Source: a virus (Duplodnaviria > Heunggongvirae > Uroviricota > Caudoviricetes). From it: a stretch of DNA of 31,930 nucleotides. Numbering within the stretch: position 1 is the stretch's first letter; each line of letters opens with the position of its first letter. Both the position numbers and the translations under genes were made by a program. Positions 170-11,383 of the stretch are shown piece by piece. The notes under the pieces were generated by a model. That model searched no databases. It worked only from the letters and a program-made list of their open reading frames with translations, and had not been told where the DNA came from. The stretch covers positions 1-31,930 of IMG/VR virus record IMGVR_UViG_2565956721_000004. The stretch is one strand, 5' to 3'.

Positions 170-228
170 AAAAAGGGCGGCAGAGCAGTCACGGAGTAGA
201 ACTGATACCGCCAAAAGTCACCAGAAAA
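170..228 (-). ncRNA. dicF: DicF-like small RNA (cell-division inhibitor sRNA of Qin-type prophages)
   Basis: Reverse complement of 175-227 reads TTTCTGGTGACTTTTGGCGGTATCAGTTCTACTCCGTGACTGCTCTGCCGCCC followed by a U-run (170-174). This is near-identical to the E. coli DicF sRNA as I recall it, and it lies directly downstream of the ydfC-like gene as in Qin. Confidence 0.75.
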
Positions 229-1887: not shown

Positions 1888-2169
1888 ATGGAAGAATTAA
1901 GAATATTTCTCAATTCTCTTTCGTCAGATGAACAGCGTATGTTTGCATGTGAGTGTGGTACTAGCATCGGTTATCTAAGAAAGGCATTGAGTAAAGGTCA
2001 AATGTTAGGGGCATCGTTATGTGTCCTTATTGAGCGAGCCAGTAATGGTGAAGTTACACGTCAGCAACTAAGGCCTTTTGATTGGATGAATATTTGGCCC
2101 GAGCTGGAAGATACCAAAACGTTAACACAACCACTTACTAGGAGCTTGATTCATGAAAATCAAGCATGA
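1888..2169 (+). CDS. Cro-like DNA-binding protein, YdaS family (DUF1019-like)
   Basis: AAGGAG RBS 6 nt upstream. Motif CGTSIGYLRKALSKG...ASLCVLIERASNGEVTRQQLRPFDW parallels Rac YdaS (GGQSAMARLLGVS...ERCPAIERATRGEVLCEELRPDIDW) as recalled. Confidence 0.7.
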   Translation: MEELRIFLNSLSSDEQRMFACECGTSIGYLRKALSKGQMLGASLCVLIERASNGEVTRQQLRPFDWMNIWPELEDTKTLTQPLTRSLIHENQA

Positions 2170-2578
2170 ACACATCCGCATGGCGATGAATGCCTGGGCG
2201 CGTCCTGATGGCGAAAAAGTTCCAGCAGCTGGAATAACCCAGGCTTATTTTGAGTTGGGTATGACGTTTCCTGAACTGTATGACGACAGCCATCCGGAAG
2301 CCCTGGCTCGCAATACCCAGAAAATTTTCCGCTGGATAGAGAAAGACACCCCTGATGCAGTTGAAAAAATTCAGGCGTTGTTACCAGCGATCGAAAAGGC
2401 AATGCCACCTTTGCTGGTGGCCAGAATGCGCAGCCACAGTTCAGCTTATTTTCGGGAGCTGGTGGAGACGCGGGAGCGACTGGTGAGAGACGCTGATGAT
2501 TTTGTCGCAGTGGCAATCGCCGGTTTCAATCAGATGAACCGTGGTGGCCCGGCAGGAAATGCTGTGGCAGTACATTGA
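2153..2578 (+). CDS. YdaT-like protein (Rac-type toxic partner of YdaS)
   Basis: Begins MKIKHEHI, the same N-terminus I recall for Rac YdaT; start overlaps the end of the cro-like gene (translational coupling). Confidence 0.6.
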   Translation: MKIKHEHIRMAMNAWARPDGEKVPAAGITQAYFELGMTFPELYDDSHPEALARNTQKIFRWIEKDTPDAVEKIQALLPAIEKAMPPLLVARMRSHSSAYFRELVETRERLVRDADDFVAVAIAGFNQMNRGGPAGNAVAVH

Positions 2579-4408: not shown

Positions 4409-7207
4409 ATGTGGGGAAGTGAAAACAAACAAAATCTGGACGTACTGGATCCTGTGCAGTTGGTGCGTATCGAAGCGGTACACCGGGGGTTCCTTTACCA
4501 GCATCTTTACGCTGTAGGCTGCTTACTTTTGGCGCAGAGGGCTGCTATGGACTCAGTAACTGTCGAGCTTGATGAGGATATTGAGCTGAAATCCAAACAG
4601 GAACGTCTCTACATTCAGGTTAAAACCCGTTCAAAACCTATTATGCCCAACGATGTGTCGGGGGCTCTGGAGCGATTTGTAAAGCTCAGAAATGAGCATA
4701 CTTCGGCAAACCGCGAAGGGGTGGCTTCTTTTGTGATTATTGTAAACCAGGCGCCTGGACCGCTGCTTCAGAAGATGATTGACGATAAAAAGCTTCCTTC
4801 TGATGTTCTTATTGTCTGGCCCCAGTCGATAGCTGGACGTCACCCGGCACTTCCGCCCGCATGGAGTACTCTGGCTGATGCGGCCACATGGTGTATCGCA
4901 GAAGCAGAAAAGCTGAAATTTTCACTATTGTCCCCAGAATCCTTGATTTGGAAGTTAGCAGGATTGGTTCAGCTTGCCGCCACCGGAGGCGATACCAATG
5001 GACAACATACGTTTTTCACGGAAGAACTTACTGAACTATTTGAACAGTTGATCGTTCAGCTACAGGACTTTCCTGCACCACCAGCACTGTACCGCCCACA
5101 AAACGAAGAACCTTCTCTCACATCTGGTGAGCGGATCCGTATCCTTTGTGGACTCTCAGGTGCAGGCAAGACAGCTTGGGCCGCACAGGCCGCATTACAC
5201 TCCACTGCACTTTGTGCTTATTACGACACCGGTGATCTTCCCGGTCCAGCTCTGGCCAGTACGCTGGTGCGCGAGATGGCTGCTAGATTTACAGCCCGTG
5301 ACCAAGACGGTTTGCGCAGGATTTTGCTCCCCGGTGCCAGTGGTTTTGAGGCTCTTAGGAGTTTTGATACCTACCTGAAAGAGCAGGGTACCACCTTGGT
5401 GCTGGTTCTGGATAACGCCCATCGTGTACCTGCGGAAAATCTACGGGATGTTCTGAATGCAACTACACATATTCGTTTTGTGCTGTTGTGCCAGCCTCAC
5501 GAAAACGTTCGCGAACTGGAGGTCATGACGGGGCTACAGCGCGAGGGCCTGCAGGGATGGAATCTCGATACGGTAGCTGTCGTTGTAAACGATATCGGAG
5601 GATTTGCCACCGCTATGGGATACGAGCAGCTACGGGCTTACACTGGTGGTCTTCCCCTGTATGTAGAGAGCGCCGCAAAAATCGCCGTTTCTGATTATGA
5701 GCGTAATGTCGATGCTCTGTGTGCTGAACTCCAGCAACAAACCCATACTGCGGAAACCGCCCAAGAAATTATTCTGTCACGTGTATTTCAGGGATTTGAA
5801 TCACTACTTCAGAGCGCGCTGGCATTGTTCAGTCTCTCTGACGTAGGGCTGAGTCGCGAAGAGATTTCTACGCTCCTAATCAATTCGCTGAACATTTCAC
5901 CAAGCAGTGCGGCTTCTTTAATTAGGAAAATGCGCGCTACTGGCACTATTGAAATTTATGGAAACCAGACCCTGAAGGTACATGATGCTGTCAGGGGGCT
6001 AGGACTGCAACATCTGGAACTGATGGATCAGGGTATATCGAACAAAGCGCTACTAGCGCTGAAAGACCTTTTAGTTGAAAGTCTTCATAATACCCGCAAT
6101 ACAAAACGGTTATCGTTGTTGACTCAACTTTATATTAAGCTCAATGATGTCACGACGTTGATCGAACTCTCAGGCCAAGAAATGTTTTATGAGATGGGCG
6201 TGACGGTCGACATTCTTGCAAGCTTGGAGCGTGCTGCAACATCGGACTTATTGGGACCTGTTCATAAATTCTGGGCATTGGATGGCCTTGTTTTCGTTGA
6301 GCTTAAAGACGGAATATCCGACCACATTGCTCAGAGGTTAAACATCATGGGAGCTTTACTTGCGGAGCACAAGTTCGGCTATCAAGAAGAGATGGCCTAT
6401 GCAATGAAACGAATGTTATTTTCGGCAGAAAGCAATGATGCACGAGAAGTTCAAAAGCTGGCACAGGAAGTCCGCCCCCAACTCCCAGATGAAGAACATA
6501 AACGCATCTTTGACTACAACCATGCCATTGCACTCTGGAGATTAAAAAAACTCAAGGATGCTGAAACATTAAGCTGTAATGTTATACAAGGGTACTATTC
6601 TTTATTTGGTATCACACCTGCTGATGTCATAGGAAAAAACGCCGACGCATTATGGAAAACTATTAATCATTCCGAAAATATGCAGGAACACTTTAAACAT
6701 ATGGCTGATGCTCTGGAGTTGCTGGCCAGAATTCGTGATGCGCAGGGAAAACTGTCACCATTACTGCGTATTCATTCGATGAAGTTCTACAATCTGGCCA
6801 TGGCCCCGGAATCCATGGTCAGGGTGGGCCAAGATCTGGCGGATGAGTTTGTTGCCATAAAGGATTACGACGGTGCCAAGGAAGTCATGGAGCAACATGT
6901 CCTGCCGGTTGTCAATGAGGCAGGTCTAGTACATCGACTGATTCAGGTTCGAAGCCAATACGCAGTCATATTGGCACTATCGGGTCAGCATAAAGCAGCT
7001 GATGTCGAAATGCAGCGCCTTGCTCCCTATATCGAAGGCCTCACAGGTGTACAGCGTCAAGAAATCCAAAATCAATCAAATTACATCGTACAGCTTGCCC
7101 ATAAAGCAGCAAAGACTAAATTAACTGAAGTTTTTGGTGCGGTCGGCCGGAATGAACAATGCCCCTGTGGCTCGGGAATAAAGTACAAAAAATGTCACGG
7201 TGCCTGA
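4409..7207 (+). CDS. STAND-type P-loop NTPase with N-terminal Mrr-like nuclease-type domain, TPR-like helical C-terminal region and terminal SEC-C zinc motif (candidate antiphage sensor)
   Basis: 932-aa ORF with AAGGA RBS. Motifs read from the translation: D55...Q70-V-K72 (hhhQxK, Mrr/PD-(D/E)xK-like); Walker A G248-LSGAGKT255 (nt 5150-5173); Walker B L330-VLVLDN336; GLPL motif 414-417 (NB-ARC/STAND hallmark); long helical repeat region; C918-P-C920-GSGIKYKK-C929-H930 (SEC-C type). Fold and function are inferred. Confidence 0.85.
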   Translation: MWGSENKQNLDVLDPVQLVRIEAVHRGFLYQHLYAVGCLLLAQRAAMDSVTVELDEDIELKSKQERLYIQVKTRSKPIMPNDVSGALERFVKLRNEHTSANREGVASFVIIVNQAPGPLLQKMIDDKKLPSDVLIVWPQSIAGRHPALPPAWSTLADAATWCIAEAEKLKFSLLSPESLIWKLAGLVQLAATGGDTNGQHTFFTEELTELFEQLIVQLQDFPAPPALYRPQNEEPSLTSGERIRILCGLSGAGKTAWAAQAALHSTALCAYYDTGDLPGPALASTLVREMAARFTARDQDGLRRILLPGASGFEALRSFDTYLKEQGTTLVLVLDNAHRVPAENLRDVLNATTHIRFVLLCQPHENVRELEVMTGLQREGLQGWNLDTVAVVVNDIGGFATAMGYEQLRAYTGGLPLYVESAAKIAVSDYERNVDALCAELQQQTHTAETAQEIILSRVFQGFESLLQSALALFSLSDVGLSREEISTLLINSLNISPSSAASLIRKMRATGTIEIYGNQTLKVHDAVRGLGLQHLELMDQGISNKALLALKDLLVESLHNTRNTKRLSLLTQLYIKLNDVTTLIELSGQEMFYEMGVTVDILASLERAATSDLLGPVHKFWALDGLVFVELKDGISDHIAQRLNIMGALLAEHKFGYQEEMAYAMKRMLFSAESNDAREVQKLAQEVRPQLPDEEHKRIFDYNHAIALWRLKKLKDAETLSCNVIQGYYSLFGITPADVIGKNADALWKTINHSENMQEHFKHMADALELLARIRDAQGKLSPLLRIHSMKFYNLAMAPESMVRVGQDLADEFVAIKDYDGAKEVMEQHVLPVVNEAGLVHRLIQVRSQYAVILALSGQHKAADVEMQRLAPYIEGLTGVQRQEIQNQSNYIVQLAHKAAKTKLTEVFGAVGRNEQCPCGSGIKYKKCHGA

Positions 7208-7484
7208 GTCTTTGTACGACCATGCGGGCCTTATTGTCTTGCTATTGCTCTTATGGTTCGCCTTTCTGATTGATTTCATATTGGCGAGGTGACGGGAGTT
7301 AAGTAGAATGGCTGCGGGTGCTTGAGGCTATCTGTCTCAGGCATGAACACCAAAGGCAGATAGAGAAAAGCCCCAGTTAACATTACGCGTCCTGCAAGAC
7401 GCTTAACATTAATCTGAGGCTCAATCTATGAACGGCAAATCTAGGTTAGCCTCTTACGTGCCGAAAGGCAAGGAGAAGCAGGCT

Positions 7485-7640
7485 ATGAAGCAGCAAAAGG
7501 CGATGTTAATCGCCCTGATCGTCATCTGTTTAACCGTCATTGTGACGGCACTGGTAACGAGGAAAGACCTCTGCGAGGTACGAATCCGAACCGGCCAGAC
7601 GGAGGTCGCTGTCTTCACAGCTTACGAACCTGAGGAGTAA
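7485..7640 (+). CDS. hokD: Hok/Gef-family type I toxin (HokD/RelF-like), with overlapping upstream mok-like frame starting 7428
   Basis: 51 aa MKQQKAMLIALIVICLTVIVTALVTRKDLCEVRIRTGQTEVAVFTAYEPEE: single transmembrane helix plus conserved Hok C-terminal motif; matches HokD as I recall it. Confidence 0.8.
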   Translation: MKQQKAMLIALIVICLTVIVTALVTRKDLCEVRIRTGQTEVAVFTAYEPEE

Positions 7641-7708
7641 GAGACCTGGCGGGGGAGAAATCCCTCGCCACCTCTGATGTGTCAGGCATCCTCAACGCAC
7701 CCGCACTT

Positions 7709-7728
7709 AACCCGCTTCGGCGTTTTTT
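7709..7728 (+). terminator. Short GC hairpin (CCGCTTCGGCG) + T6 after hok
   Basis: Read directly; stem is short, so strength is uncertain. Confidence 0.35.
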
Positions 7729-7783
7729 CCGTTGATTAACTCTAGTTATTAGAGAACCGAACTTTTATTGATGGGGCAGGGAG

Positions 7784-8176
7784 ATGAAGAAACTTGTTTT
7801 AGTCGCAGGTGTAATGATTGCAACAGTAATGTTGGGAGGGTGTGCAGCAAAGGTCGATCCAGCGTTGAAAGCAGAAGCAATGAAGCCACTAACATGTAAT
7901 GATGAAAAGCAATGTGACTTTTATTGGAAACGAGCGCAATTCTGGTTGGCTAATAATTCCTCATGGAAAATTCAAACGGCGACAGACACGCTAATTTCCA
8001 CTTATAATCCCTCTCCAAATAGTCCATTCCTCGCTTATCAAGTGAGTAAAATGCCAAATGAAGATGGATCCTCAAGAATTTTCATCAAGCCTTTTTGCGA
8101 TAATATGTTTGGCTGTCAACCAAACCCCTATCAGGCAGTTGTTTCCTTTAAAAACTTCGTTAAAACAGGGCAGTAG
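7784..8176 (+). CDS. Secreted lipoprotein of unknown function (cargo; possible superinfection-exclusion factor)
   Basis: GGGCAGGGAG RBS; signal peptide with lipobox MLGG-C (MKKLVLVAGVMIATVMLGGC); four further Cys in the mature part. Not part of the Qin backbone as I recall it. Confidence 0.6.
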   Translation: MKKLVLVAGVMIATVMLGGCAAKVDPALKAEAMKPLTCNDEKQCDFYWKRAQFWLANNSSWKIQTATDTLISTYNPSPNSPFLAYQVSKMPNEDGSSRIFIKPFCDNMFGCQPNPYQAVVSFKNFVKTGQ

Positions 8177-8375
8177 TGTATAGCTTGGACGATAAATTAT
8201 TAGTGAAAACGCCGTAAACCCTCACCCAATGTGGACTAAGTCTATCAAACATGACTGTGATGATTAGTCCGTAGTTGTTGCCTATGAAATCTGGATTGAG
8301 TCAGGGTTTAATCCAATAATTATTCTATCGTTCCTTTACAAGTCCGGTATATTACTTTCAGTTTGTTTTAGCATA

Positions 8376-11073: not shown

Positions 11074-11149
11074 GGCCCTTTAGCTCAGTGGTGAGAGCGA
11101 GCGACTCATAATCGCCAGGTCGCTGGTTCAAATCCAGCAAGGGCCACCA
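11074..11149 (+). tRNA. tRNA-Ile2 (anticodon CAU, ileX-like; formally could decode Met)
   Basis: Cloverleaf folded by hand: acceptor GGCCCTT/AAGGGCC, anticodon loop CTCATAA, T-loop TTCAAAT, 3' CCA; close to E. coli ileX as recalled. Confidence 0.8.
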
Positions 11150-11150
11150 A

Positions 11151-11227
11151 CCGCCACTAGCTCATCAGGAAAGAGCGTCAACCCTTTAAGTTGAGTGTGC
11201 GAGGTTCGAGTCCCCGGTGGCGGTCCA
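11151..11227 (+). tRNA. Atypical tRNA-like gene, anticodon UUU (Lys) with C at position 33 and 5'-CC start
   Basis: Hand fold: acceptor CCGCCAC/GTGGCGG, U8, D-loop with GG, anticodon stem TCAAC/GTTGA with loop CCTTTAA, T-loop TTCGAGT (one A-C mismatch in T-stem), CCA end. It is only 1-2 nt from its neighbours. Confidence 0.5.
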
Positions 11228-11229
11228 GT

Positions 11230-11305
<76 letters not shown>

Positions 11306-11308
11306 TAT

Positions 11309-11383
<75 letters not shown>

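Follow-up and report, generated by a model that had tools for sequence, protein, structure and literature searches.

A probably intact hok/mok/sok type I toxin-antitoxin cassette of the hokD/hokW subtype in a Qin-like prophage of Escherichia coli

Introduction

In a viral DNA sequence of 31,930 nucleotides (IMG/VR record IMGVR_UViG_2565956721_000004, called the window below), positions 7231-7728 very probably constitute a type I toxin-antitoxin cassette, hok/mok/sok of the hokD/hokW subtype, that is intact; we give this reading a probability of about 90%. The host element is a lambdoid prophage of E. coli resembling Qin, and the cassette lies in its early region. The cassette is an ordinary complete copy of a known system and there is nothing new about it, the system being already represented by the hokW/mokW/sokW annotation in phage 933W, by hokD in RefSeq and by experiments in prophage Sp5. 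The main value of the present analysis is a correct annotation. In RefSeq only the hokD CDS is marked at this place, and base-resolution annotation is now possible for the mok frame, the Sok RNA gene and the RNA elements of regulation (Table 1). The copy is also useful as an intact counterpart of the truncated hokD of K-12.

The window is E. coli DNA, and its region 7200-7760 is 100% identical to the AR_0089 chromosome and to four chicken isolates. The genes around the cassette are those of a Qin-like lambdoid prophage. They include dicB/DicF and ydfABC, repressor/Cro-like genes and a YdaT-family protein, a replisome organiser and a DUF977 protein, a 932-aa SEC-C protein followed by hokD and then by two small ORFs, DUF968, RusA and the Q antiterminator, and four tRNAs, lysis genes and terminase. 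The cassette is flanked by the replication genes on one side and by the DUF968/Q genes on the other, which is where the Qin prophage of K-12 also has hokD.

Table 1. Positions of the cassette, its elements and the neighbouring gene in the window, with two Sok promoters from other loci
Feature	Position	Strand	Basis and remarks
Whole hok/mok/sok cassette as transferable block	about 7231..7728	+	homology blocks in IMG/VR and E. coli genomes
932-aa SEC-C / AAA ATPase / Cap4-like nuclease gene	4409..7207	+	profile matches
hok promoter-like site	7281..7309	+	TTGGCG (7281-7286), 17 nt, TAGAAT (7304-7309); promoter scan, 9/12 matches
Full-length hok mRNA, about 413 nt, probable ends	7316..7728	+	Rfam model start, GGGUGCUUGAGG, U-run of terminator
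tac (translational activator element)	7316..7327	+	predicted to pair with fbi (full-length fold) and ucb (truncated fold)
Conserved 5' stem-loop	7328..7363	+	predicted in both folds
ucb, anti-SD, AAGCCCCA	7368..7375	+	predicted to pair with mok SD (full-length) and tac (truncated)
mok Shine-Dalgarno (SD), GAGG	7416..7419	+	8 nt 5' of mok ATG
Sok-target hairpin with mok AUG	7423..7447	+	predicted fold of truncated form; loop ACGGCAAA complementary to Sok 5' end
mok ORF, 70 aa	7428..7640	+	ORF list; in frame with hok
dcb (AGCCUC)	7448..7453	+	predicted to pair with mok SD (7416-7421) in truncated fold
hok Shine-Dalgarno, AAGGAG	7470..7475	+	9 nt 5' of hok ATG
hok toxin ORF, 51 aa	7485..7640	+	ORF list; in-frame ATG at 7485; product MKQQKAMLIALIVICLTVIVTALVTRKDLCEVRIRTGQTEVAVFTAYEPEE
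TACG motif, Tyr47 codon	7623..7626	+	identical to K-12 hokD here; known TadA A-to-I site (Tyr to Cys)
3' stem-loop blocking 3' trimming, putative end of processed active mRNA	7647..7670	+	-19.6 kcal/mol; R1 alignment
fbi (fold-back inhibition element), CCUCAACGCACCC	7690..7702	+	predicted to pair with 7316-7327 in full-length fold
hok terminator, clipped, CCCGCUUCGGCG + U6	7711..7728	+	hokD-type comparison, folding
Putative Sok antisense RNA gene, 71 nt	7366..7436	-	homology to sokW; 5'-GCCGUUCAUAGAUU tail, long hairpin, GGGGCUUUU 3' end
Putative Sok promoter	7443..7471	-	-35 TTGCCT (7471-7466), 17-nt spacer, -10 TAACCT (7448-7443); positional homology
K-12 sokB promoter			TTGCCG, 17 nt, TAAGAT; positionally homologous to the Sok promoter of the window
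R1-like Sok promoter			TTGCGC, 17 nt, TATCCT; positionally homologous to the Sok promoter of the window

Toxin and mok reading frames

The first-pass annotation had recognized a 51-aa Hok-family ORF nested in frame in a longer, mok-like ORF, and the ORF list together with the profile searches bears this out. The toxin matches Pfam HOK_GEF (PF01848) with an E-value of 1.2e-23 and 82.9 bits (cutoff 22), covering the profile from end to end, and PHROG 251 'MokW-like host killing' with an E-value of 2.8e-33. With the NCBIfam Hok subfamily model it scored 48.5, below the curated cutoff of 73, and no PADLOC model matched Hok; both of these results are uninformative. The identical DNA in E. coli AR_0089 carries the RefSeq name hokD (WP_000813254.1, 'HokD'). 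One synonymous difference separates the CDS from that of K-12 hokD and the proteins are the same; by this toxin sequence and by its prophage position, the toxin belongs to the hokD (relF) orthologue group.

The arrangement of mok and hok is that annotated for K-12 mokC/hokC and for 933W mokW/hokW, and the mok frame of the window is homologous to mokW and mokC. An in-frame ATG located 57 nt upstream of hok was found in 76 of 90 hokD-type loci, and the Shine-Dalgarno sequence of hok shows no variation in an alignment of 44 sequences. For hokC, hokD and hokE, A-to-I editing has been described at the Tyr of the TACG motif (PMC5630033). The predicted local fold at the corresponding site of the window is not a tRNA-like 7-nt loop; the editing site is assigned from the published data on editing rather than from structure.

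Ends of the hok transcript

The -10 hexamer of the hok promoter-like site lies 7 nt before the conserved 5' end of the mRNA (G7316) and is kept in 933W. The sequence starting at G7316, GGGUGCUUGAGG, is the leader start in 144 of the 161 hok loci examined. On the plus strand, 7316-7490 is matched by the full length of the Rfam model RF01794 'sok' (110 bits, gathering score 59, E=2e-24), and as controls K-12 hokC, K-12 hokB and an R1-like locus scored 118, 110 and 87 bits, respectively. Because the model matches the strand of hokC/hokB in K-12, while sokC/sokB are annotated on the opposite strand, it is oriented like the hok mRNA. A Sok gene on the plus strand, which this match by its name would indicate, was rejected, since the model matches the hok-sense strand in K-12 hokC, in hokB and in the R1-like locus. 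The 417 nt of 7316-7732 have a minimum free energy (MFE) of -164.3 kcal/mol (z=-6.1 against shuffled sequences), far beyond chance. A structured leader had initially been placed at 7208-7427. The leader itself holds, but its start is shifted to 7316 on the basis of the promoter-like site, the Rfam model and GGGUGCUUGAGG, and 7208-7315 belongs to the junction and the promoter rather than to the leader.

A short hairpin after the stop codon had likewise been noted and taken for the terminator. The hairpin at 7647-7670 is real, with compensatory changes in 8 of 10 pairs, but we rejected it as a terminator because it lacks a U-run and its counterpart in the R1 alignment is the processing roadblock, the stem-loop that marks the end of the processed mRNA. 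The 'hok R' primer for mature mRNA ends at this stem-loop of R1 (PMC1635323). The terminator is found at 7711-7728, and in the window it is clipped. For the hokD-type consensus, CCCGCUUCGGCGGG with a U-run, the folding energy is -11.4 kcal/mol, against -3.1 kcal/mol for CCCGCUUCGGCG with U6 in the window. Where the consensus stem CCCGC-UUCG-GCGGG has GCGGG the window has GCG, so that five G-C pairs plus flanking pairs are reduced to three pairs, and the U6 is kept. This type of clipped terminator occurs in 3 of 90 hokD-type loci. In many phages, the base after 7722 continues directly with position 8375 of the window, which means that about 650 bp (7723-8374) have been inserted in the window precisely at the terminator; this insertion includes a 130-aa lipoprotein-like ORF with a match to PHROG 16082. 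Owing to the clipped terminator, some transcripts may read through into the ORF at 7784-8176. A generic promoter and terminator scan found no terminators, and the hok promoter was the only promoter that it found.

Predicted regulatory folding of the hok mRNA

In the full-length RNA of the R1 type, tac pairs with fbi and ucb sequesters the Shine-Dalgarno sequence of mok (SDmok), and once the 3' end has been processed, the partner of tac is ucb and that of SDmok is dcb (PMC9841398). The predicted fold of the full-length form in the window (7316-7732) pairs 7316-7327 with 7690-7702 by twelve pairs and 7369-7375 with 7415-7421. The predicted MFE fold of the truncated form (7316-7672) pairs 7316-7323 with 7368-7374, and SDmok (7416-7421) with 7448-7453, which enclose the hairpin of the mok AUG (7423-7447). 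In these predictions, the sequence alone reproduces the published switch from the closed, full-length form to the open, truncated form.

Covariation was analysed in 44 diverse hok mRNAs, which comprise hokD, hokC, hokB and R1-like types from many Enterobacteriaceae. In the helices of the closed form, 81.9% of the cells are paired and 102 double-sided changes are found, compared with 44-52% and 8-43, respectively, in slid controls. For example, position 4 of tac and its fbi partner are UA in 23 and CG in 20 sequences. The proportion paired is 74.6% for the ucb/SDmok helix, 93.8% for tac/ucb and 76.5% for SDmok/dcb in the same set, and the 5' stem-loop has compensatory changes in 6 of 10 pairs with 91.8% of cells paired. 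For the hypervariable target hairpin, which is poorly aligned in the MAFFT alignment, the pair count of 42% understates the conservation and was replaced by per-allele folding (see below). By a per-sequence duplex search, every hok subfamily was found to have an fbi complementary to tac, located 45-57 nt past the stop codon, and the changes in the two elements compensate each other, as in GGGUGC/GCACCC, GGCGC/GCGCC and, in hokB, GCCUGAGA/UCUCAUGGC. In the window, the tac-fbi duplex has -21.5 kcal/mol, lies 48 nt past the stop codon and is of the form that the majority of 60 unique hokD-type mRNAs show. Covariation across the 44 diverse hok mRNAs thus supports the predicted pairings. The first-pass annotation had suggested folding the mRNA for ucb/dcb and fold-back inhibition elements and had regarded a lack of conserved folding elements as a sign of a silent copy; the tac/fbi, ucb/SDmok and SDmok/dcb pairings are all present in the predicted folds, and R1-type tac, ucb, mok SD, dcb and fbi are in place.

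Sok antisense RNA gene

An antisense Sok RNA overlapping the mok start had been expected for this hokD-type toxin but had not been mapped. In the 933W record, sokW is a misc_RNA of 71 nt (L165 1571-1641, minus strand) starting at the ninth base of mokW, the ATG of which is at 1633 in L165. Since no indel separates 933W and the window anywhere between the mRNA start and the end of hok, the sokW annotation places the Sok gene of the window at 7366-7436 on the minus strand, and this is the decisive evidence for its position. The same position is obtained from the annotated sokB and sokC of K-12 and from the 5' end of R1 Sok (PMC1635323). In the predicted fold, the minus strand from 7423 to 7372 forms a long hairpin, followed by CUUUUCUCU. 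The earlier proposal to look on the minus strand of 7380-7500 for a promoter and an approximately 65-nt Sok-like RNA has in this way led to a candidate gene of 71 nt with hairpin and U-rich tail, preceded by the putative promoter TTGCCT-17-TAACCT.

The predicted start of Sok, G7436, is 7 nt downstream of the -10 hexamer. The promoter hexamers of the window are found in 69 of 90 hokD-type loci, and the -10 and -35 regions are identical in 933W and the window; mutations of the sokW -10 abolish antitoxin activity (PMC8621323). The putative Sok promoter has 7 of 12 matches to the sigma-70 consensus and was not flagged by the generic scan, and the functional R1-like promoter also has 7 of 12. Because sites with 7 of 12 matches are missed by it, the scan is uninformative for Sok, and homology mapping was used instead.

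Hypervariable Sok tail and target loop

Among 68 unique cassettes encoding the identical toxin, the entropy has a peak of 0.94 bits per site in 7426-7435 and is at most 0.07 in the hok CDS. The hypervariable patch of about 15 nt (7426-7445) corresponds to the 5' tail of Sok, the target loop and mok codons 1-6. The patch has at least 15-19 alleles, and all 15 alleles folded keep the SDmok/dcb stem and the inner target hairpin at -10 to -14 kcal/mol. Cassettes residing together in one genome have different alleles. The allele of the window, AGAUUUGCCGUUCAU, is a minority one (7 of 90 loci) and differs from the patch of sokW at 8 of 12 positions. A tentative reading, to which we give somewhat less than an even chance, is that diversifying selection acts on the patch and that it determines specificity ('immunity'), so that the Sok of each prophage would silence only its own hok mRNA. 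Patchy recombination could also be the source of the variability.

Distribution and boundaries of the cassette

Hok is found in about 80% of Enterobacteriaceae genomes and is enriched in prophages (bioRxiv 10.1101/2025.08.07.668861). At least 80% of the region 7200-7760 is covered in 2,688 of 5,426 complete E. coli genomes, i.e., about half, at up to 10 places per genome, and cassette matches were also found in 102 phage and 1,464 plasmid records. In 80 IMG/VR loci with an identical Hok, the homologous block has its start at 7231, 7251 or 7293-7304; its end is at 7722 in most loci, or else at 7728. Matches in E. coli genomes start at 7231 and end near 7728. A leader of the K-12 type, abutted by relE, was found in two of these 80 loci and a different truncation in one more.

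Alternative interpretations

The cassette is directly preceded by the 932-aa gene, and a functional link to this neighbour, then called a STAND gene, had been put forward as a speculation. The N-terminus of the protein has a weak nuclease match (Cap4_nuclease 5.9e-6, LmuA 4.8e-7, DUF4297-like); the protein also has matches to AAA_22/AAA_16 and a C-terminal SEC-C motif. One could imagine that hok/sok and this gene form one two-part defence module, because they are adjacent on the same strand at a distance of 277 nt, because the protein weakly resembles nuclease domains of defence proteins, and because every inspected occurrence of the gene is followed by hokD in the same slot. Such a module is largely refuted by the distribution: the 932-aa gene is present in only 16 of the 5,426 genomes, against 2,688 for the cassette, and it is absent from all 80 viral loci with the cassette. 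The conserved cassette block moreover begins at 7231 or later, past the stop of the gene at 7207, hok has its own promoter, and the published survey found that hok is not enriched near defence systems (bioRxiv 10.1101/2025.08.07.668861). The adjacency is accounted for if the 932-aa gene entered a prophage cargo hotspot that already held hokD. We consider a common module extremely improbable, and the gene looks like rare cargo beside a common cassette, not a partner of hok/sok.

A decayed, silent copy that is no longer regulated or expressed, like the leaderless K-12 hokD (relF) or the IS-disrupted hokA, hokC and hokE, would be compatible with the clipped terminator stem (-3.1 against -11.4 kcal/mol, a variant of 3 in 90 loci) and with a Sok -10 hexamer having 3 of 6 consensus matches; several chromosomal hok loci are also reported to be inactive in killing assays. 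Set against this, the promoter -10, tac, ucb, mok SD and ATG, dcb, hok SD, the ORF of the HokD protein, the 3' hairpin and fbi are all undamaged, and each has its majority form. Unlike K-12 hokD, the window has the entire leader and the Sok gene, its Sok promoter hexamers do not differ from those of sokW, which is active in experiments (PMC8621323), and the U6 run still stands 3' of the shortened terminator stem. Decay is therefore unlikely, and an intact hok/mok/sok cassette remains our preferred reading.

Proposed mechanism and role

The mechanism proposed here follows the R1 paradigm and was reproduced in silico. The weak promoter at 7281-7309 would produce an hok mRNA of about 413 nt from 7316. 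In the full-length RNA, pairing of tac with fbi and of ucb with the mok ribosome-binding site would allow neither translation nor binding of Sok. Slow 3' trimming to the hairpin at 7647-7670 would remove fbi, and the subsequent pairing of tac with ucb and of the mok SD with dcb would expose the target hairpin with the mok AUG. Synthesis of Hok would require translation of mok. The unstable Sok of 71 nt (7436 to 7366, minus strand) would bind the target hairpin through its 5' tail, block translation of both mok and hok, and target the duplex to RNase III. Once Sok is no longer synthesized, the stable pool of mRNA would be translated and Hok would depolarise the inner membrane.

The likely role would be to help lysis and release upon prophage induction, as shown for hokW-sokW, or else prophage maintenance or phage exclusion. 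In work cited by the survey (bioRxiv 10.1101/2025.08.07.668861), chromosomal hokA, hokB and hokC are reported not to mediate post-segregational killing, and a maintenance role is therefore not assured. The copy could be a natural test case for two small questions, namely whether the clipped terminator alters the end-pairing of the hok mRNA and whether different Sok-tail alleles cross-repress.

Comparison with known systems

The hokD (relF) gene in the cryptic prophage Qin of K-12 occupies the same Qin-type place, upstream of the DUF968/Q genes. Its DNA is near-identical to the window from 7471 to the terminator and the Hok protein is the same. Since relBE (relE) abuts the hok SD in K-12, everything upstream of 7471 has been lost there; K-12 hokD is thus without promoter, tac, ucb, mok start and the whole Sok gene, whereas the window has the complete form. 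The terminator stem, in contrast, is full in K-12 hokD (GCGGG) and GCG in the window. In hokC (gef)/mokC/sokC of K-12, the toxin is 82% identical to that of the window, the leader is closely similar, and mokC is in frame with hokC and shares its stop codon. This locus belongs to the chromosomal backbone and not to a prophage, and its fbi and 3' end have been lost to IS186.

The hok/sok (parB) locus of plasmid R1 has the same gene set, and the tac/fbi, ucb/SDmok and SDmok/dcb pairings and the 3' roadblock hairpin are in common with the window (PMC9841398, PMC1635323). In both loci the Sok start is placed 8-9 nt into mok, and the Sok promoter is positioned alike. The toxins are 41% identical, and the Sok stem-loop of the window has an extra insert of about 16 nt, giving a Sok of about 71 nt against 64 nt in R1. 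The R1 locus is on a plasmid and that of the window in a prophage.

The hokW-mokW-sokW locus of Stx2 phage 933W/Sp5 (VT2-Sakai) has cassette DNA 93% identical to the window over 417 nt, with the same in-frame mok, tac, ucb, dcb, fbi and Sok promoter hexamers. Four residues differ at the C-terminus of the toxin (TA..P.E in the window, VD..S.K in HokW), and the similarity stops before the terminator. The locus is in the late or right-end region in 933W, whereas in the window it is early, between the replication genes and Q. In the Sakai prophage Sp5, sokW is a 71-nt sequence complementary to the hokW 5' UTR, both sokW RNA and hokW mRNA were detected on northern blots, mutations of the sokW promoter unleash the toxicity of HokW, and HokW is found at the inner membrane (PMC8621323). 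Deletion of the hokW-sokW locus halved phage release after mitomycin C, and hokW-sokW is an experimentally shown type I toxin-antitoxin pair (PMC8621323).

Prophage type and gene content

The features mapped in the window are collected in the table below. Because the DicF antisense sRNA adjoins ydfABC, and the matching genome record places dicB just ahead of the first base of the window, the element is assigned to prophages of the Qin/DicF type. In the early region, a gene annotated as a toxin has been found immediately after that of a Cro-like regulator. The four tRNA genes have the anticodons CAT, TTT (Lys), TGT (Thr), and TCC (Gly), and the CAT-anticodon tRNA is registered as tRNA-Ile by RefSeq but is assigned to Met by ARAGORN.

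Features mapped in the window
Feature	Position (nt)	Strand	Remarks
DicF antisense sRNA	175-226	-	Rfam RF00039, 71.5 bits
Toxin YdaT family protein	~2153-2578	+	RefSeq annotation; coordinates transferred from L001, the matching genome record
932-aa protein	4409-7207	+	Weak nuclease-like match (N-terminal), AAA_22/AAA_16 matches (ATPase), C-terminal SEC-C motif
Hypervariable patch	7426-7445		Sok 5' tail, target loop, and mok codons 1-6
TACG motif	7623-7626		hok Tyr47 codon
Insertion	7723-8374		~650 bp
130-aa ORF	7784-8176		Inside the insertion; matches PHROG 16082 (unknown function)
Four tRNA genes	11074-11383	+	Between Q antiterminator (upstream) and holin gene (downstream)

The gene for the 932-aa protein is present in only 16 of the 5,426 complete E. 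coli genomes, and occupied the same prophage slot in every occurrence inspected. The match at its N-terminus is a weak one to nucleases (Cap4/LmuA/DUF4297-like), and this is possibly an uncharacterised defence gene.

Relative to most related phages, the window also carries an insertion whose junction lies exactly at the hok terminator, with the stem clipped, and whose ORF encodes a product with a lipoprotein-type signal (LGGC).

Variation and distribution of the hok cassette

The patch covering the Sok tail and its target was compared among cassettes with identical Hok, using the equivalent patch in the retrieved loci L006-L100. Per-site entropy in these cassettes was 0.94 bits in the patch vs. 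at most 0.07 in the CDS, and the hairpin has been kept in all of the 15-19 patch alleles. Co-resident cassette copies within one genome differ in their patch alleles.

Hok loci identical or near-identical to enterobacterial ones were also obtained from genome contigs (L095, L104, L110, L115-L117, L131, and L149) of assemblies labelled Veillonella, Acinetobacter, Xanthomonas, Ferruginibacter, Streptomyces, Oscillibacter, Dysgonomonas, and Vagococcus. Since most of them lie on short contigs, contamination or mis-binning appears likely.

Editing motif in hok

In the predicted local fold around the hok TACG motif, a tRNA-like loop was not found. At the corresponding site of K-12 hokD, A-to-I editing by TadA has been described, which recodes Tyr to Cys (PMC5630033).
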